Positions 4,094 through 64,000 are shown, counted from the first letter of the stretch. The stretch is 64,000 nt of DNA from Alphaproteobacteria bacterium (GCA_965243375.1 CBDEUT010000008.1:872560-936559); one strand, 5' to 3'. The notes: generated by a model from the letters alone, not told the origin. A program made the numbers and translations.

Positions 4094-4094
4094 C

Positions 4095-6167: not shown

Positions 6168-6191
6168 GCCGGGGCCCCTGTGGGCGGGGAC

Positions 6192-34132: not shown

Positions 34133-34285
34133 TCATTTCCCTCAGTCGCCGGGCGCTCGCTCCGCTCGCTTGGCTACGCGCCAAAGGCGCGGCGCGCGGT
34201 CGCGCGCTCCGGACCTGCGGTCCGGCACTCATAACAGCAGACACCTCGTGGGCCGGTCGCGTCGTCCGGGCCTGGCGGCCCGGGA
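34133..34285. repeat. dispersed structured repeat (family B)
   Basis: 48/49 identity to 28887-28935 plus a shared 3' hairpin CCGGGCC...GGCCCGG. Confidence 0.75.
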
Positions 34286-38011: not shown

Positions 38012-38100
38012 GATGTCCTCCGGTCTGGTATGCGTGAGGGGCCGGCGCGGCCGGCGCGTTAGTCAGAGCACTACTCGACCGTGCCGAATCTCGGCGGCTC

Positions 38101-38217
38101 GAACCCACCTCCCCCTGTCCCCCTCCCCCCGAAGGGCGGAGGGGGGACGTGGCGGCACCAGCTTGCTCTCCCTCTCCGCCCCTGGGGGCGGAGAGGGCCG
38201 GGGTGAGGTGGGGGTTC
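38101..38217. repeat. family A palindromic repeat, uninterrupted copy
   Basis: Terminal IR GAACCCACCTC.../...GAGGTGGGGGTTC enclosing two hairpins, including CCCTCTCCGCCCC-T-GGGGGCGGAGAGGG. Confidence 0.75.
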
Positions 38218-38290
38218 CTCGGGCCGCACGGCATGCGAAATGAGGGACCGTGCGGCGGCTGGGTACGATCCCGTTCGGTCGGACAGCGCA

Positions 38291-39607: not shown

Positions 39608-39616
39608 GACGTCTCC

Positions 39617-40600
<984 letters not shown>

Positions 40601-40624
40601 GTGTCGCGGGTTTCCGGGTGAGCT

Positions 40625-41644: not shown

Positions 41645-41743
41645 CTCTTCCTCGCCTCCGGTGCCCGCTGCACCCGTTACGTAATCGGCAGGTGCGGAAC
41701 TTCAAGGCACGCTAGGTCAAACCGGGCACTCTGACAAGGGCAA

Positions 41744-41760
41744 GGCAAGTACTACTTGCC
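41744..41760. promoter_or_regulatory. perfect inverted repeat upstream of pdhA (candidate operator)
   Basis: GGCAAGTA-C-TACTTGCC. Confidence 0.4.
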
Positions 41761-41795
41761 ATAGCAAGCAGTCTGGGCCTTCGTTGAGGATAGCG

Positions 41796-42137
41796 CTACT
41801 CGCCGGGTGCCGGCGCGGGCTGCGTTGGCCCTTCGAGGAACAGCACCTCCTCGTCCGGATGCCCCAGGTTGAGCATCCGACGGGCCTCCTGGTCGAGCAG
41901 GTCGAGGTCCAGGCTCTCGGTCCTGAGCTGGGAGACGCGGCGCTCCAGCTTACGCCGCTCCTCGGCGAGCGCAGCCACCTCGGCGCGGGTCCGCTCGACC
42001 TCGGCGGAGCGCTCGACCCACCTGAGCAGCCCCCGCTCGCCCTGCACGCTCTGATAGCCCACGTAGAGCAGGCCCAGCGCGCAGGTCAGCAGCACGATGA
42101 TCGTCCGGTAGCGAACGCGCGCGAATCGCTCGGCCAT
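41796..42137 (-). CDS. ftsB: septum formation initiator FtsB/DivIC family
   Basis: TM helix, GERGLL, coiled coil, LDLDLLDQEAR; eno-ftsB-pdhA order. Confidence 0.88.
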   Translation of the reverse strand: MAERFARVRYRTIIVLLTCALGLLYVGYQSVQGERGLLRWVERSAEVERTRAEVAALAEERRKLERRVSQLRTESLDLDLLDQEARRMLNLGHPDEEVLFLEGPTQPAPAPGE

Positions 42138-42225
42138 GATGGGAAGACATCAACGCCGGCGCCGGCGACTGTCAAGACAGCAGTGCCGGCCTAAACGGTC
42201 GGACGGCGAGCGCCCGACCGCCGGA

Positions 42226-44268
<2,043 letters not shown>

Positions 44269-44433
44269 TCACGTCGTCGGCAGCGCCAACGCGAGGCGAC
44301 CCACCGCCGGGCAGGTTCGACCGGCGGAGCCGCACGATCCTGCCGGCGCCCGCGCCGCAGCCCGCAGAACCGGGATCGCGACGTGCTATCGTCCGAAGGC
44401 TAAGAGGCCGTCCGTCAGCGCGGGATATCGACG

Positions 44434-45549
44434 ATGCGCACGAGCACAAACTTTCTGAACGAGCAGGCGTGGCGGTACTTCTGGCACCCGGTGTGCACGG
44501 TTGCGGAACTGCGCGCCGCGGCGGCAGACGGGAACCGGCCGCTCGCCGTAACCCTGCTGGGCGAGAGGCTGGCGGTGGCGGAGATCGGGGGCCGCGTTGC
44601 AGCGTTCGAGGACCGTTGCATCCACCGCTCGACGAAGCTCACGGTGGGACGCGTCGAATCCGGAGGACTGCGCTGCGCGTATCACGGATGGCTCTACGGA
44701 GCGGACGGGCGGTGCCGGGAGATTCCCTCGATGCCCGAGCACTCGATTCCCGAAGACTGCAAGGTCGGGGCTCACGACGCGGCCATCGCATACGACCTGG
44801 TCTGGGTGCGGCTCGATTCCTCCCTCGATACCCTAATCCCCGGCTGCCCCGCGTTCGGCGATGCCGCATTTCGCTGCGTGGCCGGCGAGCCCTACACATG
44901 GCCGACGTCGGCGGCTCGGCGGCTGGAGAACTTCGTCGACCTTGCACACTTTCCCTTCGTGCACGACGGCTCGCTCGGCGACCGGCGACAGACACGGGTT
45001 CCCATCGCCAAGGTCGACCGGCTCAACCGGGAGCTGCGATTCCAGTTCGTGCCGTCGCCGGAGATGCAGCTCCCCGGCGTCGCGCTCATGGCGCCTACCG
45101 ACTATCGCCTCTGGGTGCCGTTTACCGTCAATCTCGAGTTCTTCTTCCCCGACGGCGAGCGCAGCCAGCTTTGGATGTCCGCCTCCCCGGTTGAATCTGG
45201 CGTGTGCCGCAGCTTCTGGTTCACCAGCCGGACTGCGGATCGGGATGGATCCGACCAACCGCACCTCGACTTCCAGGCTCTGGTGCTGAGCGAAGACCTG
45301 CCGGTGATCGAGGCGCAGGAGCCGCCCGAGATCCCTGCCCCCGCCGAGGAGTATTCCGTGCTCACCGACAAGGTCTCCATCGCCTATCGCAGGTGGCTCA
45401 AGGAGTTGTCGAGAGCTGCTGACGAGAGCGCGGATGCCCTGGCCCGCTGCCTCGATTCGGTACGCATCGAATCCGACCGGATTTTTGACGACATGCCGCC
45501 TCCCGCTTCAGTGGCAGGCGACGGCGCTTCCGCTTCGGTAGCTGAGTAA
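44434..45549 (+). CDS. Rieske non-heme iron oxygenase alpha subunit (VanA/demethylase-like)
   Basis: DRCIHR...CAYHGW Rieske cluster; ENFVDLAHFPFVH and ED iron ligands. Confidence 0.9.
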   Translation: MRTSTNFLNEQAWRYFWHPVCTVAELRAAAADGNRPLAVTLLGERLAVAEIGGRVAAFEDRCIHRSTKLTVGRVESGGLRCAYHGWLYGADGRCREIPSMPEHSIPEDCKVGAHDAAIAYDLVWVRLDSSLDTLIPGCPAFGDAAFRCVAGEPYTWPTSAARRLENFVDLAHFPFVHDGSLGDRRQTRVPIAKVDRLNRELRFQFVPSPEMQLPGVALMAPTDYRLWVPFTVNLEFFFPDGERSQLWMSASPVESGVCRSFWFTSRTADRDGSDQPHLDFQALVLSEDLPVIEAQEPPEIPAPAEEYSVLTDKVSIAYRRWLKELSRAADESADALARCLDSVRIESDRIFDDMPPPASVAGDGASASVAE

Positions 45550-45608
45550 AGTTGAGACGGCTGCCGCGCGCGGCCGCGGTCGACGGCACGGAAGGGAGCC
45601 GACGGCAG

Positions 45609-45929
45609 ATGGGGAGCGTCGCGTATCACGTCGTGGGCGAAACAGCCCATCTCGGCGAAGGCGAGGTCAAGTGTGTCGTCGTCGAGGGACGGGAGATCGC
45701 GCTCTACAGAATTGCCGGCGAGTTCTTCGCCACCGACGACACCTGCACCCATGCCCACGGCTCCCTGAGCGAGGGATACGTGGAAGGCGAGGAAATCGAA
45801 TGTCCGCTTCACGGCGCCCGCTTCAACATCCGCACCGGCGAAGCGACGTGCCCGCCGGCCACGGAGCCCCTTGCCACCTACGAGGTGAAGGTCGAGGGCG
45901 AGGATATCCTGATCGGCATTCGCGCCTGA
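45609..45929 (+). CDS. Rieske-type ferredoxin
   Basis: CTH...CPLHG, FNIRTG. Confidence 0.92.
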   Translation: MGSVAYHVVGETAHLGEGEVKCVVVEGREIALYRIAGEFFATDDTCTHAHGSLSEGYVEGEEIECPLHGARFNIRTGEATCPPATEPLATYEVKVEGEDILIGIRA

Positions 45930-45982
45930 GCGTCGCCACGGGCGGGCTCCACGGGGCGGTGCCTGCCGACGGTTCGGACTGC

Positions 45983-46972
45983 TCAGGCGAAGAGCGCCTG
46001 GGCCATGAATTTCTTCGCGTCGATGTTGGTGCCGCAGACGATGACCGCCGTGCGCTTGCCCCGAAGCCGGCCTGCGAGCGGGCCGAGCAGCGCGGCCGTT
46101 GCCGCGGCGCCTGCCGGCTCCACGGCGAGCTTCATCTCGGCGAAGAGCAGCCCCATGGCGCGGCGCATGGCCTCGTCGTCGATCGTCACCAGCTCGTCCA
46201 CGTAGCGCCGGCAAAGTCCGAACGAATAAGGGGCGGCATGGGGCGCGCCGAGGCTGTCGGCGATGGTGGCGACCTTGTCGATGGGCTGGGGCGAGCCTGC
46301 GGCGAAGCTGCGGTGCATGGTATCCGCGCCCTCGGGCTCGACACCGTAGACCCGGCACTGCGGCTGCAGGGTCTTGATGGCGCAGGAGACACCGGCGCAG
46401 AGCCCGCCGCCGCCGATGGGCACGACGACCGCATCCAGCGCCGGCACCTGGCGCGCAAGCTCCAGGCCCACGGTCGCGGTGCCGAGCGCTGTCGTTGGCC
46501 CCTCGAAGGGATGGATGAAGGCGCGCCCCTCGTCGGCCTCGATGGCGCGCACGGCCTCGAACGCCGCGTGCACGTCCGGCACCTGCACAAGCTCGGCGCC
46601 GTAGCGGCGCACCTGGGCCACGCGGAAGGGATCGGCGCCCTCCATCATCACCACCTTGGCAGAGGTGCCGACGCCCTGCGCGGCAAAGGCCACCGCGATG
46701 GCGTGGTTGCCGGCGCTCACCGCCGTGACGCCACGCGCGCGCCCCGCCTCGTCGAGAGCCAGCGCGTTGAGCAGCGCGCCCCGCGCCTTGAAGGTGCCGG
46801 TGCGCTGGAACAGTTCGAGCTTGAGGAAGACCGCGCTCTCCGGCCCGAGCGCATCCGAGACTGGGGCCGCCCGCCAGCGGTGCACCGGGGTCTCCTCGAT
46901 CAGATCGCCGAGTGTGGCCCGCGCTTCCTCGATCGCCGCAAGGTCCGGCGGGGCCGGGTTCTCCGCCGCCAT
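45983..46972 (-). CDS. threonine/serine dehydratase family PLP enzyme
   Basis: KLELFQRTGTFKARGA, SAGNHA, HPF, GGGGL, EPAGA. Confidence 0.9.
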   Translation of the reverse strand: MAAENPAPPDLAAIEEARATLGDLIEETPVHRWRAAPVSDALGPESAVFLKLELFQRTGTFKARGALLNALALDEAGRARGVTAVSAGNHAIAVAFAAQGVGTSAKVVMMEGADPFRVAQVRRYGAELVQVPDVHAAFEAVRAIEADEGRAFIHPFEGPTTALGTATVGLELARQVPALDAVVVPIGGGGLCAGVSCAIKTLQPQCRVYGVEPEGADTMHRSFAAGSPQPIDKVATIADSLGAPHAAPYSFGLCRRYVDELVTIDDEAMRRAMGLLFAEMKLAVEPAGAAATAALLGPLAGRLRGKRTAVIVCGTNIDAKKFMAQALFA

Positions 46973-46976
46973 CGCG

Positions 46977-47768
46977 CTACCGCCCCTGGAAGCGCGGCGC
47001 GCGCTTCTCGACGAACGCCTGCACCGCCTCGCGGTGATCGTCGGTGGAGCCGAGCACGCCATAGGTGGCGGAGGCCCGATCCAGCCCGGCGCGCAGATCG
47101 CCGCCGATGCCGTCCCGCACCAGCCGCTTGATGGCGCGGATGGCGAGAGTCGGGCCGTCCGCGAGGCGACGCGCGAGGTCCAAGGTCTGGGGCATCAGCT
47201 CGTCGTCCGCGAAAACCCGGTTGACGAGGCCGATGCGCTCGGCCTCCGCCGCGTCGATGGCATCGCCGGTCCACAGCAGCTCCAGCGCCTTGGCCTGGCC
47301 CACCAGCCGCGGCAGCCAATGGGCGCCGCCGGCGCCGGGCGCGAGCCCGACCCTGACATAGGTCTCGGCGAACTTCGCCGAGGCCGCGGCGAAGCGCAGG
47401 TCCATCGCAAGTGCGAGGTCGAGACCGGCGCCGATGGCCGCACCGTTGATCGCCGCGATCACCGGCTTGTCCATGTCGGCGAGGGCGAGCGGGATGCGGT
47501 GCACGTGCTCGCCGATGGTTGCCCGCTGCTCGGCCGGCGCCTGCTCCAGCCCCTCCCCCATCAGCTCCTTGATGTCGCCGCCGCTGCAAAAGGCCTTGCC
47601 GGCGCCGGTCACCACCAGCACGTGCACGTCCTCGCGGTCGCGACAGTCGGCGAGGGCGGCAGCCCAGGCGTCGATCATGGTGCGGGTAAAGGCGTTTCGC
47701 CGCTCGGGCCGGTTGAGCGTGATCGTCGCGATACGCTCTGCGACCTCCAGGCGGATCTCGTCGCTCAC
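46977..47768 (-). CDS. enoyl-CoA hydratase/isomerase family protein
   Basis: ITLNRPERRNA, AFCSGGD, KPVIAAING.A.GAG; GTG start overlapping the upstream stop. Confidence 0.9.
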   Translation of the reverse strand: MSDEIRLEVAERIATITLNRPERRNAFTRTMIDAWAAALADCRDREDVHVLVVTGAGKAFCSGGDIKELMGEGLEQAPAEQRATIGEHVHRIPLALADMDKPVIAAINGAAIGAGLDLALAMDLRFAAASAKFAETYVRVGLAPGAGGAHWLPRLVGQAKALELLWTGDAIDAAEAERIGLVNRVFADDELMPQTLDLARRLADGPTLAIRAIKRLVRDGIGGDLRAGLDRASATYGVLGSTDDHREAVQAFVEKRAPRFQGR

Positions 47769-48787
47769 GGGCTCACTCCTTCTTCTGGTGCCGCGCTGCC
47801 ACCGGCGGTGACCATCGTGGGCCAGAGCGCCGCGCCGCCGCCCCGCGCGGTCTCGGCGCCGAGCACCCGCCACCAATGGGCCTCGTTGCCGCACTCGTCG
47901 CGCCACGCCCAGAGCCGCTTGGTCCAGATGTGCAGGTCGTGCTCGGCGGTGTAGCCGATAGCGCCGTGCACCTGGTGCGCGAGGCGGGCGACGGTGCCCG
48001 CCGCCTGGCTCGCCCGCGCCTTGGCGGCGGCGAAGGCAAAGGGGGTGCCCGCCTCGGCAGCCGCGTCCACCGCCGCCCCGGTGGCCGCCGCCTCGCCCGC
48101 CATCTCGGCAAGATAGTGCTGGATCGCCTGGAAGCGCGCCAGCGGCCGGCCGAACTGCACGCGATCGTGCGCGTAGCCCACGCTCATGGCGAGCACTTGC
48201 TCCATCGCGCCCCGCAGCTGGGCGGCGCGGGCGAGGGCCATCAGCGCGAAGCCGTCCACCTCGGGCGGCAAGGCGGCAAAGCGGTCCGGCGGGCCGGCAA
48301 GCGTGACGTCGTCGCGCGGCTCGCCGGCCAGGTTGGCGCCTTCGCTGACATCGACCGGCTTGCACGAGGCCAGCCCCTCGCCTGGAACGGCGACCACGAT
48401 GGCGGAGGTGAAGCGCGCCCACGGGACTCGCGGCAGGGCAGCGGCGTCGCTAGTGCCCGCTCTATCCGCCAGAGCGTGCACGGCAAGCGGGCCGTCCGGC
48501 GCCTCGGTGCCCGCCGCATGGCAGAGAAGCCCGCCCACCAGCGCCTCCGCGACCGGAATTGGCGCGGCATGACGGCCTGCCGCGCGCAGCACCGCGAGCC
48601 CAGCCGCGAGGCCGGCGCCGCCCGCCTCCTCCGGCAATGCCGCCTGCGCCAGCCCGGTCTCGGCAAAGGCCTGCCAGAGCCGTTCCGGCCAGGAGCCTTC
48701 GGCGAGCGCCGCGCGCGCGGCCTCGCTCTCCGCCGCGAACAGGTCGTCGGCCGTCTGCTCGACCAGGCGCGCCGTGTCGTCGCTCAT
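47765..48787 (-). CDS. acyl-CoA dehydrogenase, short partner subunit
   Basis: RVQFGRPLARFQAIQH, HQVHGAIGYT.EH. Confidence 0.87.
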   Translation of the reverse strand: MSDDTARLVEQTADDLFAAESEAARAALAEGSWPERLWQAFAETGLAQAALPEEAGGAGLAAGLAVLRAAGRHAAPIPVAEALVGGLLCHAAGTEAPDGPLAVHALADRAGTSDAAALPRVPWARFTSAIVVAVPGEGLASCKPVDVSEGANLAGEPRDDVTLAGPPDRFAALPPEVDGFALMALARAAQLRGAMEQVLAMSVGYAHDRVQFGRPLARFQAIQHYLAEMAGEAAATGAAVDAAAEAGTPFAFAAAKARASQAAGTVARLAHQVHGAIGYTAEHDLHIWTKRLWAWRDECGNEAHWWRVLGAETARGGGAALWPTMVTAGGSAAPEEGVSP

Positions 48788-48794
48788 CGGCCCC

Positions 48795-49952
48795 TCACCG
48801 GACACCCAGGCCGCGCGCGATGATCGAGCGCAGCACCTCGTTGGTGCCGCCACGCAGGGTGAACGACGGCAAACCCAGCAGCGTCGCGCCCAGCGCGGAT
48901 TCGAGCGAGGGCGCGTTGGCGCTTCCCCCCGCGACCGGCTCCAGCGGCACGGCGCGGCGCAGCGTCTCCGCAACCTCGGCCTCGAAGCGGGTGCCCATGT
49001 CCTTGACGATGGCGGCCTCGACGTCCGGAAACTCTCCTCGCTCCAACTGGCCGGCGACCGCGAGGGACATGGCGCGGAGCGCGTAAAGCTCCGCCGTGAG
49101 CCGTCCGATCGCCTCGGCGAGCCGGGGCTCGGGCGCAGGGCCGGCCGCCTCGACCAGCGCGGCGAACAGATGGAAGGTGCTGAGGATGCGCTCGGGCCCG
49201 CTCCGCTCCAGCGCGAGCTCGCCCGTGACCTGACGCCAGCCGTCGCCCTCCTGCCCGATCAGCCGGTCGGCAGGAATCGTCACGTCCTCGAAGACACATT
49301 CGTTGAAGTCGTGCTTGCCGGCCAGGTTGACGATGGGGCTGACCCGCACGCCGTCGGCTTCGAGGTCGATCAGGAATTGGCTGAGCCCCTCGTGGCGGCT
49401 CTCTCCGGCCGGCCCCGTGCGGCAGAGCGCGATCATGTACTGCGAGCGGTGCGCGTTGCTGCTCCACACCTTGGTGCCGTCGATGCGCCAGCCGTCCGCC
49501 GTCCGCTCCGCGCGGGTGCGCACCGAGGCGAGATCGGAGCCGGAATCGGGCTCGCTCATGCCGATGGCGAAGTAGCATTCGCCCGCGGCGATTCTGGGGA
49601 GGATCGCCTGGCGCTGTTCCTCGCTGCCGAAGCGCAGCAGCAGCGGGCCGCTCTGTCGGTCCGCCACCCAGTGGGCGTAGACCGGCGCGCCGGCCGCCAG
49701 CAGCTCCTCGATCACGACGTAGCGCTCGAGCGCCGAGCGTTCGTGTCCGCCGTAGCGCCTGGGCCAGCACATGCCGATCCAGCCCCGCGCACCGAGCGAA
49801 CGGCTGAACGAGGCCGACCACTCCGAGCCGAAGTCGGAATCGGGCCGCCAGCCCTCGGCCTCCTGCGACTCCGCAAGGAACGCCCGGACCTCGGCGCGCA
49901 GCGCGTCGGTGCCGGGCGGCATCGCCGGCGGCGGGAAATCGAATCCGGTCAC
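48795..49952 (-). CDS. acyl-CoA dehydrogenase
   Basis: IGMSEPDSGSDLA, GTKVW, FNECVF, LALERS, GGTNEV; start uncertain (GTG 49952 or ATG 49994). Confidence 0.9.
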   Translation of the reverse strand: MTGFDFPPPAMPPGTDALRAEVRAFLAESQEAEGWRPDSDFGSEWSASFSRSLGARGWIGMCWPRRYGGHERSALERYVVIEELLAAGAPVYAHWVADRQSGPLLLRFGSEEQRQAILPRIAAGECYFAIGMSEPDSGSDLASVRTRAERTADGWRIDGTKVWSSNAHRSQYMIALCRTGPAGESRHEGLSQFLIDLEADGVRVSPIVNLAGKHDFNECVFEDVTIPADRLIGQEGDGWRQVTGELALERSGPERILSTFHLFAALVEAAGPAPEPRLAEAIGRLTAELYALRAMSLAVAGQLERGEFPDVEAAIVKDMGTRFEAEVAETLRRAVPLEPVAGGSANAPSLESALGATLLGLPSFTLRGGTNEVLRSIIARGLGVR

Positions 49953-50029
49953 GGTGCGCGGCGCCCTACCAGATCTCGCCGAGGACGCGGCCATCGCCGC
50001 GCCCTCCGGGATACGGCGCACCCAAGAGT

Positions 50030-50076
50030 TAGGTGAGATTGTCCGGGATTAAGTGGGATGAGCGGGACAAGTGAGA
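50030..50076 (+). repeat. degenerate TAAGTGGGA-like tandem repeat (about 5 units)
   Basis: TAGGTGAGA TTGTCCGGGA TTAAGTGGGA TGAGCGGGA CAAGTGAGA. Confidence 0.5.
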
Positions 50077-50115
50077 TGTCGCTGAAGTCCGTGTGCACTT
50101 GTGGGACCCACGACA

Positions 50116-50210
50116 CGTCATGGCCGGGCTTGTCCCGGCCATCCACGTGGTCACTCAGCCACCGACGGTGCTGGCGGAGAGAGATGCCCGGATCAAGTCC
50201 GGGCATGACG
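50116..50210. repeat. GTCAT...ATGAC palindromic repeat, copy 2 (intact)
   Basis: CGTCATGGCCGGGCTTGTCCCGGCCATCCAC...GATGCCCGGATCAAGTCCGGGCATGACG. Confidence 0.88.
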
Positions 50211-50308
50211 GTGTGAAAGGGTGGCGCCGACGAGAGCACACTCGGAACGAACCGCATGAGGCCTCGAAAAACGAGACACCAACAATGTTCGCCCCTGGCG
50301 ACAGAGGG

Positions 50309-51361
50309 TCAGCCACCAAAGATCTCGGCGTAGCGGGCGAGCTTGGCGCGCCAGGCCGCGTTGTCGAGAATCTCGCGGTTGACCACGGCGGGCGGCACCT
50401 CGCCCTGCTTCAGCGCCTTGCAGGCAATGACGTCGCCGGCGCCGAGTCCCGCGAAGCACTGGTCGGTCCAGGCCAGCGCGTGCGGCGAGAGGACCACGTT
50501 GTCGAGCTTGAGGATGGGGTCGTCCGCGTCCGGCGGCTCGGGGTCGAGCACATCGAGGCCGGCGCCGGCGATCCGCCCCTCCTGCAGCGCCGCGGTGAGC
50601 GCCTTCTGGTCGACCGTGCCGCCGCGCGAGGTGTTCACCAGATAGGCCGTGGGCTTCATCATGCCGATGAGGCGCCCGTCCACGATGTGGCGGGTCTCGT
50701 CGCTCAAGAAGCAGTTGACCGTCAGGATGTCCGACTCCCGGCAGAGCGTGTCGAGATCGACCATCTTCACGCCCAGCTCCTCCGCCACCGCCGGGTCGGC
50801 GTAGGGGTCGCAGGCCATGAAGTTCATGTCGAACGGCTTGGCCAGGCGGAACATCTCCGCCCCGATGTTGCCGATGCCGACGGAGCCCAGTGTCTTGCCG
50901 ACGATGCCCACCCCCATATGGCCGGACCTCTTGGCGAAGCCGGCCGGGCCTTCGACGGTCAGCTGGTGCTTGATGAGGAGCTTGCAGGTGACCGCGAGGA
51001 TCAGCGCGATGATGGCGACCGCGACCGGCCGGCGCACACCGTCCGGCGTGATGACCAGGCAGATGCCGTTGTCGGTGCAGGCCTGCACGTCCACGCTGTC
51101 GTAGCCGACGCCGAAGCGCGCCACCATGGCGAGCCTGCCGTCGGCCGGCACGCTGGAGCGCTCGAAGCGCTGGGCCAGCAGGATCAGCGCGTCGTGGCCT
51201 GCGAGCTCCTCCGCGTCCACCGGCCCGTCGCTGTTCTTGAGGTAGCTCCACTCGATGTCGGGATCGTCGTCGAGCGGCCCCCGGTCGAACATGGGGAAGA
51301 GCGGCTCGCCCTCCGGTGTGAGATAGTCCGCGCTCAGTGCGATTCTGAACTTTTCAGCCAT
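50309..51361 (-). CDS. D-isomer 2-hydroxyacid dehydrogenase
   Basis: RFGVGYDSVD, VGIGNIG, VNTSRG, GAGLDV..EP, LSPH. Confidence 0.9.
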   Translation of the reverse strand: MAEKFRIALSADYLTPEGEPLFPMFDRGPLDDDPDIEWSYLKNSDGPVDAEELAGHDALILLAQRFERSSVPADGRLAMVARFGVGYDSVDVQACTDNGICLVITPDGVRRPVAVAIIALILAVTCKLLIKHQLTVEGPAGFAKRSGHMGVGIVGKTLGSVGIGNIGAEMFRLAKPFDMNFMACDPYADPAVAEELGVKMVDLDTLCRESDILTVNCFLSDETRHIVDGRLIGMMKPTAYLVNTSRGGTVDQKALTAALQEGRIAGAGLDVLDPEPPDADDPILKLDNVVLSPHALAWTDQCFAGLGAGDVIACKALKQGEVPPAVVNREILDNAAWRAKLARYAEIFGG

Positions 51362-51377
51362 AACCTGTTGATCTCCC

Positions 51378-52178
51378 TTATCTCTTCGGCCGCCGCCGGC
51401 CTCGCTTGCATTGGGCACGCAGGCCCTCTGCACCCTCGCGCATCGCCTGCTGCAACAGCCAGACATCGCCCGAGTAGCAGATGAAGTCGAACCCTTCCTT
51501 GAACAGCGCCACGCCGGTCTCGACGTTGGGCACGAGCCTCCCTAAGGACTTGTTGTGCTGCTTCGCCGCGTTCGCGATCCGCGCCACCGCCGCGACAAAG
51601 TCCGGGTGGTCGAACTGGCCGGCGATGCCCATGGAGACCGAGAGGTCGAAGTGGCCGATCCAGAGCACGTCCACGTCCTCGATCGCCGCGATGTCGTCGA
51701 CGTTCTCGACCCCCTCGCCGGTCTCGATCAGGGCGACGAAGGTGCAGCGCCGGTTGGCGCCCCGCAGCTTCTGCTTCACGTCGCCCGGCGCGTAGCGGTC
51801 GTGCGCGATCTGCAGCGCGACGCCGCGCTCGCCGTCCGGCGCGTACTTGACGTAACTCAGCAGCTCCCGCGCCGCCTTCGCCGAGCCCACCATCGGCAGC
51901 ATGATGCCCTCGGCCCCCATATCCATGGCGCGCGCCGCGTGGTGGTACTCGCGCGAGGGCACCCGCACGATCGCCGGCATGTCTCCAGCCTGCATGTAGC
52001 GCAGCATCTGCTTCACCGTGTCGAAGCCGAAGCCCGAATGCTCCATGTCGAGCAGCACGTACTCGCAGCCGGCGGCCTTCAGGATCTGGCCGATCCCCGG
52101 CGTGCTGAACTCGACCAGGAACGTGCCGACCTTGAGCCGGCCGTGGCGGGACATCTCCTTGAGGGCGAATTCTGTCAT
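51378..52178 (-). CDS. HpcH/HpaI class II aldolase
   Basis: LDMEHS, AIVRVP, DMGAEGIMLPMV, IET, WIGHFDLS. Confidence 0.9.
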   Translation of the reverse strand: MTEFALKEMSRHGRLKVGTFLVEFSTPGIGQILKAAGCEYVLLDMEHSGFGFDTVKQMLRYMQAGDMPAIVRVPSREYHHAARAMDMGAEGIMLPMVGSAKAARELLSYVKYAPDGERGVALQIAHDRYAPGDVKQKLRGANRRCTFVALIETGEGVENVDDIAAIEDVDVLWIGHFDLSVSMGIAGQFDHPDFVAAVARIANAAKQHNKSLGRLVPNVETGVALFKEGFDFICYSGDVWLLQQAMREGAEGLRAQCKRGRRRPKR

Positions 52179-52230
52179 GTGCTCCTACCTTTTCGATCCG
52201 TCGGAATGCTCTGTCGGCGGCCGCTTGGGC

Positions 52231-54210
52231 CTAGGCGCCGAGCTCGATGCGTGAGACCGCGAACGGCGCAAGCTCGACTCGGCTCGGGTCGCCCGGCTCG
52301 CCGAGGGCTGCCGCGAAGCCCGCCGGGTCGGTCACGGCGTCAACGAAGCTGCTCGAATCCAGCCTGCCGATGGTGGCCGTGCCGCCCGAGAGGCCCGAGA
52401 CGGTCACCGTCTGCGGCGTTGGCGTGAGGTTGGCGAGCCAGAGCAGGGTGCCGCCGCCATGCTCGTAGGCGAGGCCCAGCACTTGCGTGGGATCGCCGCT
52501 GGTCACGGCGCGAACCGCCGCCCCCTTTGCCGCCGCCAGCGCCGCCACGATGTGATAGAGCGGCATCACCGCCGGGCCTGAGAGATCGTCGAACCAGGGC
52601 TGCGGGTGCTCGGTCCTGCGGTAGACCATGCCGAGCGCGCCGGAGGGCTGGCCGATCGCCAGCGCTTCCAGGCCGAGCGGCGCCACCCGTGCAGCATAGC
52701 CGAGCGTGAAGGCCGCGCCGAGCAGCGCGCGGTGGCGCGGGTCCTGACGGTTGAAGGAGTAGCGGCCGTTGTCGCCGTTCTGGTGGACGTCCTGCCCGTA
52801 GGGATTGAAGCGCATGCCGATGCCGCTCGGCGCGATGCGGTAGGGCTTGCCGCCGGCCCACGCCTTGGCCGAGGCGACGATGTCCGGCAGCGTCTGCAGG
52901 GTCTCGATTACCGAGCTGTCGTCCGGCTCGTGCACCACGGCGCAGGTGGCGTGGGTGAGGAAGTCGAACAGGTCCGGCGCGGCGACATTGCGGTTGAGCT
53001 CGGTGAAGTTGGTGAAGACGCCGCCGCCGAGCCGCACGCCGGGGAAGGCCGCGCGCGCCGCGCCGTAGACCTCGTCGAAGTCGGGGATGCCGAGGGCCGG
53101 TATCTTCTCCAGGGTGAACTTCAGGAGCCGCGCCTGCTCGGACACGATGGCGTCGGGTGCGAGCCCGGCGCGGCCCGCGATCTCGGCAGCCTGCGCCAGC
53201 TCGTCGGCCACCGGCTGCTCGCAGGGCACCGTAATCTCCAGCACGACCTCGGCATCGAGGGCCTCTGCCAGGCCCCTGCCGGCGGCGAGTGCGTCGACTG
53301 CTTCGGCGTCGCGCGGGTCGCATTCGCAGACGAGGTGCCCCGGCCCCAGCGCCTTCAGCAGGTCGAGCCCGTGCTCGAGGTGGTCGCGCTCCAGGTTGGC
53401 GACGCCGAGCCCGATCTCCGGCATCTGCGTCCCGGTTGCGCCGCCGAGGGCGATCTCGATCGCACCGTCGCCGCCCGCCCCGGTCGCCACGGCCGCCGAG
53501 CCCCCCTCGATGGTGAGGGTCGCGACCTGCCGCAGCCGCTCGCCTGCCGCCAGCGTGTAGGGGAAGGGCAGCGCCAGCGGGCGGTAGTAGGTCTTGTAGG
53601 ACGCATCGGTCCAGTTGCGCTGGTCCTCGGTCTCCCACGGGTCGGCGCCCTCGAAAGCGCAGGTTAGCCAGACACCCGGCGAGACCCGGTGGCGCATGGC
53701 GGCGATGTCGTAGAAGGGCTGCAGCGGCATGATCAGACCGGGGAAGGCGGTCTCCTCCACCGTGTCGTCGCTGTGGGTGATGGCGCAGGCCTCTCCCGCC
53801 ACGCCCTCGATCGCATGCAACGCGACGAAGCCCGTGCGGCTGGTCCTGAACTCGCCTTCCGGCTCGAAGTCCACCGTGAAGACCAGGCTGCGCTCGCTCT
53901 CCGCGACGATCTCGGCCCGGAAGTCGAGCACGCCGTCGGGGGAGTCGATCCGCCCGTCGTAGCCCACGCGAAAGCCGCCGCCCGCCTGCTCGATCTCCAG
54001 GTTGACGATCTCCGGCGAGCGGGTCTCCCAGCCCGCGCCGCGCACGACGAAGGCGAGGCCGCGTAATGCTTCCACACCGCCGTAGCGGATCCAGCGCAGC
54101 TTGCCGGCCTCGAGCGTGGCCGTGAGCGCGCCGGCGGCGAGAGTCCGCGCCTCCGGCCTCTCCTGCTCGGTGCCGTAGAGCTTGAGCGCCTCGCTCGGTG
54201 CCGTGGTCAT
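52231..54210 (-). CDS. D-apionate lactonase-like protein
   Basis: LYGTE N-terminus, RTGFVALH, ETEDQRNWTDASYKTY.RPLALP.PY, GGG.FTNFTELNR, RFNPYG, DPRHR; resembles ApnL as recalled. Confidence 0.75.
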   Translation of the reverse strand: MTTAPSEALKLYGTEQERPEARTLAAGALTATLEAGKLRWIRYGGVEALRGLAFVVRGAGWETRSPEIVNLEIEQAGGGFRVGYDGRIDSPDGVLDFRAEIVAESERSLVFTVDFEPEGEFRTSRTGFVALHAIEGVAGEACAITHSDDTVEETAFPGLIMPLQPFYDIAAMRHRVSPGVWLTCAFEGADPWETEDQRNWTDASYKTYYRPLALPFPYTLAAGERLRQVATLTIEGGSAAVATGAGGDGAIEIALGGATGTQMPEIGLGVANLERDHLEHGLDLLKALGPGHLVCECDPRDAEAVDALAAGRGLAEALDAEVVLEITVPCEQPVADELAQAAEIAGRAGLAPDAIVSEQARLLKFTLEKIPALGIPDFDEVYGAARAAFPGVRLGGGVFTNFTELNRNVAAPDLFDFLTHATCAVVHEPDDSSVIETLQTLPDIVASAKAWAGGKPYRIAPSGIGMRFNPYGQDVHQNGDNGRYSFNRQDPRHRALLGAAFTLGYAARVAPLGLEALAIGQPSGALGMVYRRTEHPQPWFDDLSGPAVMPLYHIVAALAAAKGAAVRAVTSGDPTQVLGLAYEHGGGTLLWLANLTPTPQTVTVSGLSGGTATIGRLDSSSFVDAVTDPAGFAAALGEPGDPSRVELAPFAVSRIELGA

Positions 54211-55502: not shown

Positions 55503-55597
55503 CGTCATGCCCGGACTCGTTCCGGGCATCTCTCTCAGCTGGACTCACCGCACGCGGGGCAAGCACGTGGATGGCCGCAACAAGTGCGGCCATGACG
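55503..55597. repeat. GTCAT...ATGAC palindromic repeat, copy 3 (inverted relative to copy 2)
   Basis: CGTCATGCCCGGACTCGTTCCGGGCATC...GTGGATGGCCGCAACAAGTGCGGCCATGACG. Confidence 0.85.
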
Positions 55598-57387: not shown

Positions 57388-57570
57388 TAAGTGGGAATAA
57401 TTGGGATAAGTGGGATTTAGTGGGATAAGTGGGATTTAGTGGGATAAGTGGGATAAGTGGGATAAGTGGGATAAGTGGGATAAGTGGGATAAGTGGGATA
57501 AGTGGGATAAGTGGGATAAGTGGGATAAGTGGGATAAGTGGGATAAGTGGGATAAGTGGGATAAGTGGGA
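57388..57570 (+). repeat. 9-bp tandem repeat (TAAGTGGGA)n, about 20 units
   Basis: 14 consecutive perfect units at 57445-57570, preceded by 6 units (2 perfect; variants TTTAGTGGGA x2, TAATTGGGA, TAAGTGGGAA). Confidence 0.97.
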
Positions 57571-57766
57571 TTCTGCGGCATCCGTAGCGGTCGCAACGAA
57601 GCAGAGTGTCGGCGGCGGCGCGGCGGCGCCCCGCAACCGGCCGTTCCCGCTCATGCTGCGGCCCGAGGCACTCGGCTCGCTCTCGATCGACATGGCACAG
57701 TTCTAGCGCAGGTAGCGCGCGCTGGGCATCGCACCATAGTCCGGGGTACGGCGAGGGCCTTCCCCG

Positions 57767-59819: not shown

Positions 59820-60743
59820 ATGACCACGGCAGCGGTGATCGGCCTCGGCACCATGGGGCCCGGCATGGCGGCAACGCTCGCGCGCGGCGGGCTCACGGTG
59901 CGCGCCTTCGATACGGAGGCGGCACAGCTCGAGAAGGCGCCGGGCACCGCCGGCATCGCGTTCGGTGTGCTCGAAAAACTCGGGATGCCCGATCGCGGCG
60001 GGGCCGACGCCATCAGCTATCACGACACCCTGGCCGATGCCGTGGCGGGCTGCGATCTCGTCCTGGAGAGCGTGCCCGAGAAGGTCGAGATCAAGCGCGC
60101 CGTGTTCGCGGACCTGGACAAGCTGGTCTCGAAGGAGTGCATCCTCGCCTCCAATACCTCGGGCATCCCCGTGACCACGCTGCAGGAGGGCAACTCGGCG
60201 CCCGGCCGGGTGGTCGGCATGCACTGGTCGAACCCGCCCTTCATCATCCCGGTCATCGAGGTCATCGCCGGCGCCGAGACCACGCAGGCCACCTGCGATG
60301 CGATGGTGCAGGCGATCAAGGACCTCAACCTGCTGCCCGTGGTGGTGAAGAAGGACGTGCCCGGCTTCGTCGAGAACCGCATCCTCTACGCGATCATGCG
60401 CGAGGCCTGCGATCTGGTGGAGAACGGCGTGATCGAGCCGGAGGGCCTCGACACCTGCGTCTCCTGGGGCATCGGCTACAAGCTCGCGGTCGTCGGCCCG
60501 ATGTCGCTGCTCGACATGGCCGGCCTCGACATCTACCAGGCTGTCGGCAGCTACCTGAACGCCGACCTCTGCAACCGCGACAACGTGAGCGGCTACATCA
60601 CGGAGCGGACCGAGAAGGGCGATCTCGGCATGAAGACCGGCACCGGCATCTTCTCCTACACGCCTGACGACATCAAAGCCCTGCAAGGCAAGCGGGCCGG
60701 CCAGCTCGTCGCCGTCCGCCGCGCGCTCGAAGGCCGCTCGTAG
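59820..60743 (+). CDS. 3-hydroxyacyl-CoA dehydrogenase family, close to 5-formyl-3-hydroxy-2-methylpyridine-4-carboxylate (FHMPC) dehydrogenase
   Basis: IGLGTMGPGMAA.LARGG, GMHWSNPP, VVKKDVPGFVENR, LDTCVSWGIGYK, LVAVRR.LEGR resemble the Mesorhizobium B6-degradation enzyme as recalled. Confidence 0.75.
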   Translation: MTTAAVIGLGTMGPGMAATLARGGLTVRAFDTEAAQLEKAPGTAGIAFGVLEKLGMPDRGGADAISYHDTLADAVAGCDLVLESVPEKVEIKRAVFADLDKLVSKECILASNTSGIPVTTLQEGNSAPGRVVGMHWSNPPFIIPVIEVIAGAETTQATCDAMVQAIKDLNLLPVVVKKDVPGFVENRILYAIMREACDLVENGVIEPEGLDTCVSWGIGYKLAVVGPMSLLDMAGLDIYQAVGSYLNADLCNRDNVSGYITERTEKGDLGMKTGTGIFSYTPDDIKALQGKRAGQLVAVRRALEGRS

Positions 60744-60789
60744 TGCCCCGTTCGGGAAGTTTCTATCTATCTACTCAACGCCCTCTACT

Positions 60790-60874
60790 CGTCATGGCCG
60801 GACTTGATCCGGCCATCCACGTCACCCGTCACTCGATGACGGGCCCGACGGATAAAGATGCCCGGATCAAGTCC
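60790..60874. repeat. GTCAT...ATGAC palindromic repeat, copy 4, truncated at the element junction
   Basis: First hairpin intact. The second hairpin GATGCCCGGATCAAGTCC is identical to copy 2 but lacks the final GGGCATGACG. Confidence 0.85.
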
Positions 60875-62519
60875 CCGTTTTAGCCGAGACCGACAATCCC
60901 GAGCCGGGCGTGCCGTTCCCGCCCTTTCCGCCGCCGTTTTCGGTCCATTCGACGATGGTGGCGAGGTCGCCGTGCAGCGTGGCGTGGACCTCGCCCCATT
61001 TCTCGCCGGGGGTGAGCACGATCCGCTCGATCAGCCCCCGGATGGCGTCCGCCGCCTCGGCGCGCTCGTCGGGGCGCTTCAGCGCCTCGGCAAGCCGCTC
61101 GACCTTGCGCCGGTAGATCGCCGCGACGTTGGGATGGATGTCCGGCAGGTCGGCCGGGACGGCGGCGAGAAGTGCGGTCAGCTCGTCCTGGCGCGCTTCC
61201 AGCTCGCGCAGCCGGTCCGACATGCCTCGCACATAGCCGCCGTCCTCGATGGCCGCGATCATCGAAGCGATCTTCTTCCCGATGGCGGCAAGTTCCCTGC
61301 GGTCGCTCGCGCCCGAAGCGCGACGCTCGCGGTTGAGCCGGTTGGTCTCCTCGGCGTAGGCCCGCATCGCCGCCTCGGCCGCCTCGGGAGCCATCAGCCG
61401 GTGCTTCAGCCCCGTCAGCACCCGCTCCTCGATGACGGTCCTGCGGATGCCCCTGCGGTTCGTGCAGCCGCCCGTGACATGGCCGGTGCAGGAATAGCGG
61501 TCCTGGCCGCGCATCGCATACGGCCCGCCGCACACGGCGCATTCGAGCAGGCCCGACAGCAGGTGGCGGGGCCGGTGGGCCGCGTTCAGCCGGTTCACGT
61601 TCGCCGCGCGCACCCCCGCGATCACCGCCGCGTATTTCTCCGCCTGTTCCGCCTGCCGGTCCTTCACCGCCTGCCACAGCGCGTCGTCTACGATGCGGAG
61701 TTCGGGAACCTCGACCTCGATCCACTCCTCCGGCGGGTTGAGCCGCGTCACCCGCTTGCCGGTCTCCGGGTCCTTCATCCCGCGAAGCCGGTTCCACACC
61801 AGCCGCCCGATATAGAGCGGGTTGTTGAGCACGCCCGTGCCCGCGCTCGCATGGCCGCGCACCGTGCTGTCGCTCCACCGCTTGCCCGTGGGGCCGGGGA
61901 TGCCCTCCGCGTTCAGGCCCCGCGCGATCGCGCGGGGGCTCATTCCTGCGGCATACTCCCGGAAGATGCGCCGCACGACTTCGGCCTGGCCCTCGTTGAC
62001 GGTGCGCTCGCCGCGTATCCGCTCGCCTGCGGCGTCCAGCGCCTTCACCACGTCGTAGCCGTAGCAGATGCCGCCGCCCGCCTTGCCGGCCTCCACGCGG
62101 CCCCGGATGCCCCGGTGCGTCTTCGCCGCGAGGTCCTTCAGGAACAGCGCGTTCATCGTGCCCTTGAGGCCGACGTGAAGCTCGTTGATCTCGCCCTCGG
62201 CCAGCGTCACCACCGGCACGCCCGCGAAGCGAAGATGCTTGTAGAGGATCGCAACGTCGGCCTGGTCGCGGCTCACCCGGTCCAGCGCCTCGGCCACCAC
62301 GACCTCGAACGCGCCCCGCCGCGCGTCCTCGATCAGCCCCTGGATGCCGGGGCGCAGGATCACGCTGTCGCCGGAGATCGCGGAGTCCTTGTAGGTCGCG
62401 GCGACGGTCCAGCCCTCGCGCTCGGCGTGTTCCCGGCAGATACGGAACTGGTCTTCGATGGAAGCGGCCCGCTGCTGGTCGGACGAATAGCGGGCATAGA
62501 GCGCACAGCGAAGGGTCAT
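60867..62519 (-). CDS. large serine recombinase (integrase)
   Basis: YARYSS catalytic Ser motif, DSAISG, RPG, EALDRVSRD, recombinase domain (YGY, IARGLN, NPLYIG), zinc ribbon CAVCG...CTG...C, coiled coil; RBS AGGAG. Confidence 0.95.
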   Translation of the reverse strand: MTLRCALYARYSSDQQRAASIEDQFRICREHAEREGWTVAATYKDSAISGDSVILRPGIQGLIEDARRGAFEVVVAEALDRVSRDQADVAILYKHLRFAGVPVVTLAEGEINELHVGLKGTMNALFLKDLAAKTHRGIRGRVEAGKAGGGICYGYDVVKALDAAGERIRGERTVNEGQAEVVRRIFREYAAGMSPRAIARGLNAEGIPGPTGKRWSDSTVRGHASAGTGVLNNPLYIGRLVWNRLRGMKDPETGKRVTRLNPPEEWIEVEVPELRIVDDALWQAVKDRQAEQAEKYAAVIAGVRAANVNRLNAAHRPRHLLSGLLECAVCGGPYAMRGQDRYSCTGHVTGGCTNRRGIRRTVIEERVLTGLKHRLMAPEAAEAAMRAYAEETNRLNRERRASGASDRRELAAIGKKIASMIAAIEDGGYVRGMSDRLRELEARQDELTALLAAVPADLPDIHPNVAAIYRRKVERLAEALKRPDERAEAADAIRGLIERIVLTPGEKWGEVHATLHGDLATIVEWTENGGGKGGNGTPGSGLSVSAKTGT

Positions 62520-62532
62520 GGTCTCGGGTCTC

Positions 62533-62760
62533 CTATCGGTCGTGCGCCTCCTTCTCCGGCGGCGCATTGTCGTTGGCGGCTTCGGACTGCCGGAACTGCT
62601 CGCGCGCGATCTGGCGCCCGAGAAGCCGGGCGAGCCGCATCACGGCGGCGTCGATCCGCGCTTCCGGCCCGCTGCCCGTCCCGGCCTTCGAGCCGGGGTT
62701 GTCGTTCGCGGCAACGCGGGAAACTCCCTCCCGCTCGCGGCCCTTTCCGTCTCTCCGCAT
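62533..62760 (-). CDS. small hypothetical protein upstream of the integrase (two AANDN motifs)
   Basis: 75 aa; helix IDAAVMRLARLLGRQIAREQF; GGAGG RBS; ends 13 bp before the integrase start. Confidence 0.65.
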   Translation of the reverse strand: MRRDGKGREREGVSRVAANDNPGSKAGTGSGPEARIDAAVMRLARLLGRQIAREQFRQSEAANDNAPPEKEAHDR

Positions 62761-62953
62761 CGCCTCCGCCTTCCCGGATTTCGTGACCCTGGAAGGGAGA
62801 TTTGAACCTGCGAACAGGGCTTGTCAAACCGTCGGGCAAGGGAATTTCCTGCATGGAATCAACTTCTTGGGGCCTCATGTCACCCCTTGGCGGTCCATGA
62901 GGCGACAGGAGGCACCAGGAGGATGATCGAAAAAATCTGAAAAAATTTCGCGA

Positions 62954-63382
62954 TCATCGCGTTTGCGCGTAATCGGCCAGCGTCAGGACGGATTCGCCGT
63001 GCTCGGTCGGTGCCACGGCATTCGCGAATCGGCGGTCCGCCGTCACCACCGTCGCGCCGATGCGGTGCGCGAGCGCGAGATATACGCAGTCGTAGATCGG
63101 GTGGTCGAGGGCCAGCGCCAGACGCACGGCATCGGCGGAAACGAACTCGTCGGCGCTCCAGCGCACCGGGATGTCCGGCAGGTTGTCCAGCAGGACGCCC
63201 GCAGCATGGCGTTCCATCCCGCCTGTCCGCGCCTTGCGCCAGATAGCATTGGCGACCTCGGACGCCATCAGGCGCGGCGCGTGCAGGTCGTGGCCGCTCG
63301 TCGCCAGCTCCCGCGCAACGCCCGCATCCTCCTCGACGACCAGCCACTTGACCGCCACGCTCGCATCGACCACGAAGCGCAT
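62954..63382 (-). CDS. vapC: VapC PIN-domain toxin
   Basis: VVDASVAVKW, EVANAIW, IYDCVYLALA, VTADRR. Confidence 0.9.
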   Translation of the reverse strand: MRFVVDASVAVKWLVVEEDAGVARELATSGHDLHAPRLMASEVANAIWRKARTGGMERHAAGVLLDNLPDIPVRWSADEFVSADAVRLALALDHPIYDCVYLALAHRIGATVVTADRRFANAVAPTEHGESVLTLADYAQTR

Positions 63383-63642
63383 CAGTAGTCGTCGCGATGG
63401 CCGCGGTCGCGGTCCTCGCGGATCAGCACTTCCGCCGGGGTCTGCTTGCGTCCCTCGGTCAAGGGGCGCAGCCGGTCCATGGTCTCCGCGAACGCGGCAC
63501 GCTTCGCTGCCATGTCGTCATCGGCGGCGCATTGCAGAATGTGGCGGGCCTCGCCCTCCAGCGAGCGGTTGTTCAGGGCGGCGCGTCGCTTGAGACGTTC
63601 CACCACATCGTCGTCGAGCCGCCGCACGTTGATCGTCACCAT
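63382..63642 (-). CDS. FitA/Arc-like RHH antitoxin
   Basis: INVRRLDDDVVERLKRRAA.NNRSLEGEAR...LIREDRD; TGATG coupling to the toxin. Confidence 0.88.
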   Translation of the reverse strand: MVTINVRRLDDDVVERLKRRAALNNRSLEGEARHILQCAADDDMAAKRAAFAETMDRLRPLTEGRKQTPAEVLIREDRDRGHRDDY

Positions 63643-63665
63643 CGGTCCGTCTCCAAGTGTCGGTT

Positions 63666-63687
63666 GTCAAATTGTTATCAGATTGAC
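63666..63687. promoter_or_regulatory. imperfect palindrome, candidate TA operator
   Basis: GTCAAATTGTTATCAGATTGAC just upstream of the antitoxin. Confidence 0.45.
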
Positions 63688-63869
63688 GCGACCCCTGCAA
63701 GCACCTGCGGGGAGGATATTCGCCGAAAGTTGAGGCCATGAGAGGACAGGAGATGACTCCAGGATGAGACCGTTCGTTCGGCCCTTGTTCCGTAGCTCGC
63801 GAGCGCATATCTGGCCTTTATGGACAGGCACCAACCCTCGAAATCCGTCCCTGCCCGAGCGCCCCGGCG

Positions 63870-64000
63870 ATGGTAGCGTCCATCGGCGTGATCGCCTCGC
63901 CGTCGCAGGGCGCGGCCTATTTCGAACGCGACGGATACTATTCGAAGGACGACCCGGCGCACCGGGAAGCGAGCGCCTGGGCGGGCAAGGGCGCGGCGGC
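63870..64000 (+). CDS. MobF/TrwC conjugative relaxase (5' part; runs off window)
   Basis: Manual translation MVASIGVIASPSQGAAYFERDGYYSKDDPAHREASAWAGKGAA: the Y..DGYY tyrosines and W.GKGA are typical of MOBF. Not in the ORF track. Confidence 0.85.
   Translation, partial: MVASIGVIASPSQGAAYFERDGYYSKDDPAHREASAWAGKGAA

Follow-up and report, generated by a model that had tools for sequence, protein, structure and literature searches.

Introduction

Several insertion sequences (ISs), including IS1397, ISPpu9/10, IS621 and other IS110/IS1111 types, target repetitive extragenic palindromes (REPs). Serine integrases are prized as genome-engineering tools for large cargo, action in one direction and freedom from any need for host factors, and to our knowledge the evolution of their target specificity is poorly understood. 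Here we describe an element that begins with the gene for a large serine recombinase (LSR) in a 64,000-nt stretch of DNA from an Alphaproteobacteria bacterium (contig C8 872560-936559 of G000, the genome under study); we call this whole stretch the window. The element is very probably an integrative mobilisable element (IME) of ~13.84 kb that occupies the loop of a REP-like hairpin, has this hairpin family as its preferred bacterial attachment site (attB), and was apparently inserted by its own serine integrase.

The closest described systems each share some of these properties. In Tn4451/Tn4453 and Tn5397, one LSR (TnpX and TndX, respectively) both integrates and excises the element, with a 2-bp crossover and relaxed target choice, according to the portions of PMC5704250 used here; the same portions describe serine-recombinase IMEs in Firmicutes only, with targets within genes or of low specificity. 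Like the element here, Tn4451/Tn4453 and Tn5397 are described there as mobilisable or conjugative, with several copies per genome and relaxed targeting. Unlike it, Tn4451 and Tn5397 come from Firmicutes, and those portions describe no palindromic-repeat target for them. Our element differs in turn by its TrwC (MOBF-type) relaxase and by strongly favouring one hairpin family, and the likeness of its LSR to TnpX is limited to the catalytic domain (2mhc, E 9.4e-5).

A second comparison is with the multi-targeting LSRs of Durrant et al. (2022; PMC10083194), such as Cp36, in which several unrelated sites are occupied by recombinases that share at least 90% identity. These authors raise the idea that some LSRs evolved to target host multi-site sequences; the strings 'palindrom' and 'repetitive' do not occur in the main text of their paper, whose supplements may list relevant motifs. 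Judged by at least 90% identity and more than three unrelated targets, the LSRs studied here are multi-targeting, being 94.7-100% identical in hairpins, in the 3′ part of a gene and beside other flanks. The multi-targeting clade of that paper is marked by DUF4368, whereas the window LSR carries only PF00239, PF07508 and PF13408; it works like this clade without belonging to it.

REP-targeting ISs, finally, resemble the element here in using an abundant extragenic palindrome as a harmless insertion site, and abstracts of papers on IS110/IS1111 elements mention REP targets. These ISs rely on DDE or DEDD transposases, some of them RNA-guided, measure ~1-2 kb and lack cargo, whereas the mobilisable element here is 14 kb long and is carried by a serine integrase, neither DDE nor DEDD. 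Among the abstracts and article passages searched, none described insertion into REP elements by a serine recombinase or integrase, supplementary attB motif lists lying outside that search. The present case extends landing on harmless repeats, so far described for ISs, to a cargo-carrying mobilisable element.

Results

The element interrupts a hairpin and ends at its missing half

Each repeat unit pairs two hairpins, one inverted relative to the other, and four such doublets lie in the window, at ~20266-20368, 50117-50209, 55504-55597 and, truncated, 60791-60874. A sequence-only reading of this DNA had counted four copies and placed a cut in the fourth at 60874/60875, and both observations stand: GATGCCCGGATCAAGTCC at 60857-60874 is identical to 50183-50200, where the intact copy runs on as GGGCATGACG, but from 60875 the window reads CCGTTTTAGCCGAG instead. 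The hairpin thus breaks off in its loop, and element DNA begins there. Intact equivalents of the split right hairpin are found at 50183-50209 and 20341-20367. Allowing up to three mismatches, the 18-mer GATGCCCGGATCAAGTCC occurs six times in the window against 0.12 expected, and none of 100 shuffles gave six. The features at the junction are as follows.

50117-50209, no strand: intact double-hairpin repeat, the reference copy of the sequence-only reading; an unoccupied potential attB
60791-60821, no strand: left hairpin of the truncated doublet, starting GTCATGGCCGGACTTGATCCGGCCATCC..., intact, host DNA (repeat families D3 and D18)
60857-60874, plus strand: right hairpin of the truncated doublet, 5′ arm and loop only, GATGCCCGGATCAAGTCC; left half of attB within the left attachment junction (attL)
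60870-60874, no strand: AGTCC shared by target and element in the comparison of left and right junctions; the sole shared sequence at the window site
60875-60894, plus strand: arm at the left terminus of the element, CCGTTTTAGCCGAGACCGAC; the outer 14 nt recur in perfect inverted complement in the right-end arm
60875-64000, no strand: portion of the element inside the window, continuing to C8 942792 and then, via a 4.3-kb overlap, to C4 424839

The far end was sought across G000 as half-hairpins that lack the left arm. Two places had ...GTCGGTCTCGGCT(A/G)TAACGAGTCC before G(G/C)GCATGACG, at C4 424838 (minus strand) and C7 53257. On the minus strand of C4, the right arm of the element ends ...GTCGGTCTCGGCTATAACGAGTCC and is followed by GGGCATGACG, the missing half-hairpin that the sequence-only reading had predicted for the far boundary. 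The tail of C8 and the reverse-complemented tail of C4 share 4314 aligned positions with no mismatch and one gap of 24 nt, equal to two units of a 12-nt tandem repeat, and the element therefore spans C8 933434 to C4 424839, ~13.84 kb. It leaves both window and contig and is far larger than the 60790-62519 first assigned to it. The stem variants match across each copy (GCCC before and GGGC after the element on C8/C4; GCGC before and GCGC after the element on C7), so that each pair of half-sites reconstitutes one particular hairpin.

The 12-nt repeat, GCCGGGTCGCCG, lies at L001 ~7905 (C8 ~940704) and at the matching place on C4, upstream of a gene for a 1863-aa surface protein. The two-unit difference between the contig ends is probably the cause of the assembly break there.

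The insertion site in related genomes

The element sits downstream of a 3-hydroxyacyl-CoA dehydrogenase gene, on the 3′ side of the REP-like hairpin loop. This gene flank was matched in 21/21 genomes of the genus (G000 and 20 relatives), and in all nine loci examined, taken from the 20 matching relatives, the left flank and the C4 flank are adjacent, which ties C8 to C4 independently of the contig overlap. At seven of these nine loci the two flank matches lie 13-19 nt apart, leaving no space for a doublet. The orthologous site holds an intact hairpin doublet in G035, a genome in which the loop variant GGGACAAGCCC occurs, and in G027; it holds no doublet in G041 and G034. Synteny in the relatives shows a clean insertion into a pre-existing repeat.

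These results bear on whether the switch at 60874/60875 could be an assembly chimera of a metagenome-derived genome, an explanation that we regard as very improbable. The contamination estimate of G000 is 4.62%, the contig breaks inside the element, and no public contig examined bridges the junction by 31 letters on both sides, a shortfall that counts against our reading too; in run X16 the longest piece across the junction covers 60458-60892 and reaches 18 letters past 60874. However, the same type of junction is found in independent assemblies, namely the congener G041, on a single contig, and three other metagenome-assembled genomes (MAGs), the two half-hairpins agree in stem variant, and the synteny is exact on closing over the element. 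Sponge and marine metagenome runs contain the stretch, and from the run labels the host is judged to be an uncultured alphaproteobacterium of sponge metagenomes. One X16 contig departs from the window at 60743 into text like the repeat-less arrangement of G041, which points to a related strain that is more abundant and has the site empty.

Independent insertions inside and outside hairpins

G000 contains three elements with the left arm, on C8, C7 and C9, the 20-mer of the arm lying at C7 37445 and C9 1033592. The C7 element (37445-53256) splits a different hairpin at the same position as the window copy. The C9 copy (1033592-1050343) has the left flank ...GATGCTGTCC and the right flank GGGCTTCGAACC..., with no hairpin, and by our reading of the frame lies within the 3′ part of an isochorismatase-family gene. 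In a family-level scan the left arm was carried by 2 of 44 genomes, G000 and G041; in the latter both junctions are on one contig, 15.1 kb apart, and again split a hairpin.

An exact scan for the left arm among species-representative genomes returned 11 stretches, ten of them true element ends; the other, L008, was a chance match. Four of the ten (L007, L011, L012 and L014) come after ...GCCCGGAAC(A/G)AGTCC and thus in hairpins, and the remaining six after unrelated text ending TCC. One further locus, L032, has a variant of the arm and lies outside a hairpin. In total there are 15 independent left junctions, seven of them in hairpins. A scan for the right arm gave six stretches, two continuing as GGGCATGACG, in the MAGs of L012 and L007/L014, and four as other text. 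Right flanks at non-hairpin sites start GGGCTT, GGGTTC, GCGATT, TCGGCC and CCGGTT. A scan of viral contigs for junctions found none. The C7 copy, G041 and the three MAGs, with near-identical LSRs, bear out the expectation that homologous integrases would be tied to the same repeat. Finding related elements of other sponge-associated bacteria at the same spot makes the repeat a many-copy landing site.

We also considered that the half-hairpins might be termini of the element, or repeat units inserted later beside its ends, with the repeat never a target. Half-hairpins do occur at both ends of three elements, and an IS is also found in these loops, so the repeats are dynamic. This account is nevertheless highly unlikely: the same element ends are bordered by unrelated DNA at C9 and in six other genomes, the half-hairpins vary between copies whereas the element ends are identical, and the doublet is uninterrupted at the orthologous site in the congeners G035 and G027.

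Insertion sites track the repeat content of the host

The repeat occurs throughout G000. The sequence GATCAAGTCC has 68 sites on both strands, two of which run into the left end of the element (the window copy and C7 37435), and hairpins of the AGTCC type have the loop variants GATCAAGTCC and GAACGAGTCC. There are 143 perfect-stem ATG...CAT hairpins, 30 of them with one unrelated-looking loop type. REPs and bacterial interspersed mosaic elements are short imperfect palindromes with many extragenic copies, frequently paired in inverted orientation, and the repeat has these properties. No gene for the REP-associated tyrosine transposase RAYT (Y1 transposase, PF01797) was matched in G000, which is 99.5% complete, in a search whose control was positive in 6 of 14 reference genomes. 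For this reason we use the term REP-like and do not treat the repeat as a proven REP; the palindrome family recognised by the sequence-only reading stands.

Repeats were then counted in the hosts with a degenerate 21-nt pattern for an intact attB-like hairpin, allowing at most one mismatch; we regard this as the most informative of the tests.

G000: hairpin insertions (2 of 3), 50 matches
G041: hairpin insertion, 22 matches
G049 (L007/L014): hairpin insertion, 75 matches
G051 (L012): hairpin insertion, 332 matches
G050 (L011): hairpin insertion, 0 intact matches
Five hosts of L005, L006, L009/L015, L010 and L013: non-hairpin insertions, 0 matches each

Two lines of evidence support the hairpin as preferred target. 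First, in the four repeat-bearing hosts, six of seven insertions are in hairpins (G000 2/3, G041 1/1, G049 2/2, G051 1/1), and these share the same loop position and the same orientation. Second, G000 has 30 intact attB-like hairpin sites among 52,323 GTCC sites, and the probability that at least two of three insertions would fall in hairpins is ~1e-6. Because the insertion site tracks host repeat content and because of this chance test, we conclude that the hairpin family with an (A/T)C(A/G)AGTCC loop, as judged from these sequences, is the probable preferred but not exclusive attB, with dozens of intergenic sites per genome, and that other sites are secondary. The proposal that the palindrome serves as attB thus holds for the favoured target; as the sole target it does not, 8 of the 15 left junctions lying elsewhere.

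The main competitor of this conclusion is an LSR of low specificity that acts like those of the transposons Tn4451 and Tn5397, for which a short core such as GTCCGGGC would be enough and hairpins would merely contain the core. The eight junctions outside hairpins have varied flanks, the right flanks there show a weak G-rich preference only, and the C9 copy passed over 30 free hairpins. Against this stand the 6/7 insertions at one loop position and orientation in the four repeat-bearing hosts and a stricter form of the chance test: among the 1,679 GTCCGSGC sites of G000, 30 are hairpins, and two of the three insertions fall there (P of at least two ~9e-4). We consider such a low-specificity LSR unlikely.

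Several observations weigh against a hairpin-preferring, recently mobile element. The eight non-hairpin junctions include one in G000 itself, the C9 copy, in a genome where 30 hairpin sites are still free. The hairpin host G050 has no intact match; its 2.7-kb L011 contig may have been misbinned, or the repeats of this MAG may all be of other loop variants. The LSRs of the hairpin group are 97-99% identical to that of the window (C7, G041 and a partial sequence from L011) and four full-length LSRs from elsewhere 94.7-96%, so that host lineage, recombinase subclade and target are confounded. The C7 and C8 copies are 1.3-2.7% divergent and carry different cargo, which means that neither was freshly copied from the other; neither an excised circle nor a repaired site was seen for the G000 strain. 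Finally, the crossover lies 3.5 bp off the dyad axis of the hairpin, and by our own reading the attB half-sites show little symmetry, so the palindrome as such does not explain recognition.

Nine residue positions separate the hairpin LSRs from the non-hairpin LSRs; we discarded a specificity change read from them, as the hairpin group consists of three close relatives and gives no evidence.

Attachment sites and a model for integration

The termini of the element are perfect inverted repeats of 14 nt. Identity between element and target is AGTCC at the window site and narrows to TCC across all sites, and the midpoint between the inverted arms of the element is TC. Crossover would thus take place at TC (60872-60873) or CC (60873-60874), within the shared TCC. 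The CC/GG dinucleotide named by the sequence-only reading was right in pointing to a short shared crossover region and too narrow as to its sequence. Imperfect inverted arms in the element's attachment site (attP) and very short identity with attB are the pattern of serine integrases.

In the model that we propose, excision would join the element ends into attP, with imperfect inverted arms of 18 nt (outer 14 nt perfect) and, between them, 8 nt that overlap the LSR gene at its 3′ end. The LSR, as the likely catalyst, would pair attP with double-stranded repeat DNA and exchange strands at the 2-bp crossover, TC or CC, and integration would leave one half-hairpin at each element end. Sites with little beyond (G)TCC would be used at lower preference, or if the host is without the repeat. 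The TrwC relaxase would let the excised circle use the mating pore of another element, and VapBC would stabilise the element. On this model the element may still be active today.

In solved serine-integrase complexes, half-site motifs are shifted by about 5 bp. We looked in attB for dyad symmetry, and also for half-sites resembling those of attP at a shift of ~5 bp; nothing convincing emerged. The loop sequence GGATCAAGTCC resembles the tRNA T-loop GGTTCAAATCC beside the sister elements described below; it is 5 nt out of register relative to the crossover, and we dismissed T-loop mimicry as a coincidence.

Genes of the element

The genes of the element in the window are listed below.

60867-62519, minus strand: LSR gene, 550 aa (PF00239, PF07508, PF13408)
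62533-62760, minus strand: 75-aa open reading frame (ORF) just upstream of the LSR gene; no family match, conserved in the C7 copy
62954-63382, minus strand: VapC-like PIN-domain toxin (PF01850, E 9.9e-13)
63382-63642, minus strand: FitA-like ribbon-helix-helix antitoxin (PF22513, E 6.7e-14)
63870-64000, plus strand: start of a TrwC-type relaxase-helicase, 1039 aa in full, which leaves the window (L001 3630-6749: PF08751, E 5e-86; AAA_30, E 4e-50)

From left to right, the order is LSR, 75-aa ORF, VapC, FitA-like antitoxin, TrwC, 1.3 kb with the 12-nt repeat, the 1863-aa protein and a split regulator. As a guess, the 75-aa ORF possibly encodes a regulator or directionality factor. The 1863-aa surface protein has a Calx-beta match and weak LapA matches, and by our own reading its C-terminus resembles an outer-membrane barrel. 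Pfam gave no match for short ORFs in the 1.3-kb gap. Among the listed ORFs of the element we saw no mating-pore or coupling gene; with an integrase and a relaxase of its own, the element therefore classifies as an IME, and the earlier suggestion that it is mobilisable fits this gene content. It follows that proteobacterial IMEs built from a serine integrase and a TrwC relaxase exist, where the portions of PMC5704250 used here describe serine-recombinase IMEs from Firmicutes only.

The recombinase itself, which the sequence-only reading had placed at the junction, has a resolvase-type catalytic domain with the serine motif, followed by recombinase and zinc-ribbon domains (Resolvase, PF00239, E 2.2e-23; Recombinase, PF07508, E 4e-26; Zn_ribbon_recom, PF13408, E 4.1e-9). 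Its N-terminal domain matches the structure of TP901-1 integrase (E 3.6e-11), and YARYSSDQQ aligns with YTRVSTTNQ of the TP901-1 catalytic domain. The ORF crosses the junction: its last codons lie beyond, and its TGA stop (60867-60869) is the complement of TCA in the loop. Read through joined element ends, according to the right-end sequence, it would be 13 codons longer. The C-terminal residues and the stop thus depend on the target, with the loop TGA used in hairpins and an ORF five codons longer at C9; at tRNA sites the frame continues into the tRNA gene.

The right-end regulator is split over two frames (L002 2154-2873, minus strand; L004 ~16500-17340; L003 ~15500-16470). Its N-terminal part starts MARRVVGWD..., and its C-terminal part weakly matches RovC_DNA-bd (E 8.9e-4, under the cut-off). 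The C8/C4 and C9 copies, 93% identical there, share this split, and the C7 copy has further shifts. Programmed frameshifting, known for FseA of a Mesorhizobium integrative and conjugative element, may account for the split, as may decay or assembly errors. In the C7 copy, a 4.4-kb insertion between the antitoxin and relaxase genes (G000 C7 40283-44702; L003 ~3480-7900) encodes an rve-type integrase, a helix-turn-helix protein and an AAA_25/GntR-like protein.

Relatives at tRNA-Met genes

At 24 of 80 loci of relatives, the 3′ end of an LSR gene lies beside the T-arm and acceptor end of a tRNA, with the inner arm CCGC(A/T)ACCA, and the four tRNA-type sites tested were all tRNA-Met(CAT). Like the window element, these sister elements have the outer arm CCGAGACCGAC, an LSR 60-78% identical, and an LSR gene that reads across the attachment site; unlike it, they have the inner arms CCGC(A/T)ACCA and the tRNA acceptor end, whereas the window element has the inner arms CCGTTTTAG and a different target. 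In a FastTree phylogeny of 51 LSRs (48 hand-picked loci and five from G000, minus L065 and L077, which have internal stops), the CCGTTTTAG sequences form a tight clade whose sister is a CCGTTTCAG clade; the two together fall within the tRNA-Met types. Within a plasmid collection, the best LSR match was 64.6% identical and annotated 'recombinase family protein', with no named relative.

We lean, by a modest degree, towards an LSR lineage that descends from tRNA-Met-specific ancestors and was retargeted to the REP-like hairpin as a true high-preference attB, with other sites as fallback where the repeat is missing. Such retargeting would have involved changed inner arms of attP and a few percent of the DNA-binding domains, and the new attB would be a palindrome of ~25 bp, in tens to hundreds of copies per genome and common to several sponge-associated bacterial lineages. 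If this is true, the element would be the first case in nature of a serine integrase whose landing pad is both defined and multi-copy. It would also offer a natural series, from tRNA-Met targeting through an intermediate clade to the REP-like hairpin with fallback sites, in which specificity determinants are directly mappable because matching changes in attP are visible in the sequence.

G000 itself carries two tRNA-type copies on C6, one of them interrupted, beside 3′ tRNA fragments, while C2 encodes a more distant recombinase. Beside the two C6 copies Aragorn detected no complete tRNA, a 3′ tRNA fragment being all that is present. In some tRNA-type relatives (L034, L037 and L038) the flank mirrors the element arm, with GGTGGTTGCGGG before CCGCAACCACC; this would look like unrecombined attP or a tandem junction rather than attL.

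Other mobile DNA and repeats

An IS of ~1.26 kb, with a DDE_Tnp_1 + DUF4372 transposase, occupies the same hairpin loops in G000. It is flanked on both sides by GGATCAAGTCC, which resembles an 11-bp target duplication. Copies lie in hairpin loops at the following places.

C8 420963-422241 (locus L197)
C9 ~360436-361714
C9 ~491497-492774
C7 ~315802-318131

With the DDE IS and the serine-integrase element in the same loops, the hairpin family is therefore a hot spot for two unrelated mobile elements, shared by both within one genome. The repeats also appear to have met one another: in the doublet that starts at ~20266, a second hairpin is nested in the loop of the left hairpin (20266-20312), ATGGCCGCACTT[ACCCGGACTTGATCCGGGTAT]CCGGCCAT, as though a repeat unit had inserted into a second one.

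Two more short repeat families in the window are unrelated to the hairpin family, at 28887-28935 / 34133-34181 and 29014-29062 / 38166-38214; one is a 49-nt pair, 98% identical, and the other a CTCTCCCTCTCC...GGAGAGGG palindrome pair. At 57402-57599 there are ~20 tandem copies of the 9-nt unit AGTGGGATA, the first of them including a few TTT variants; the genome is otherwise 68% G+C.

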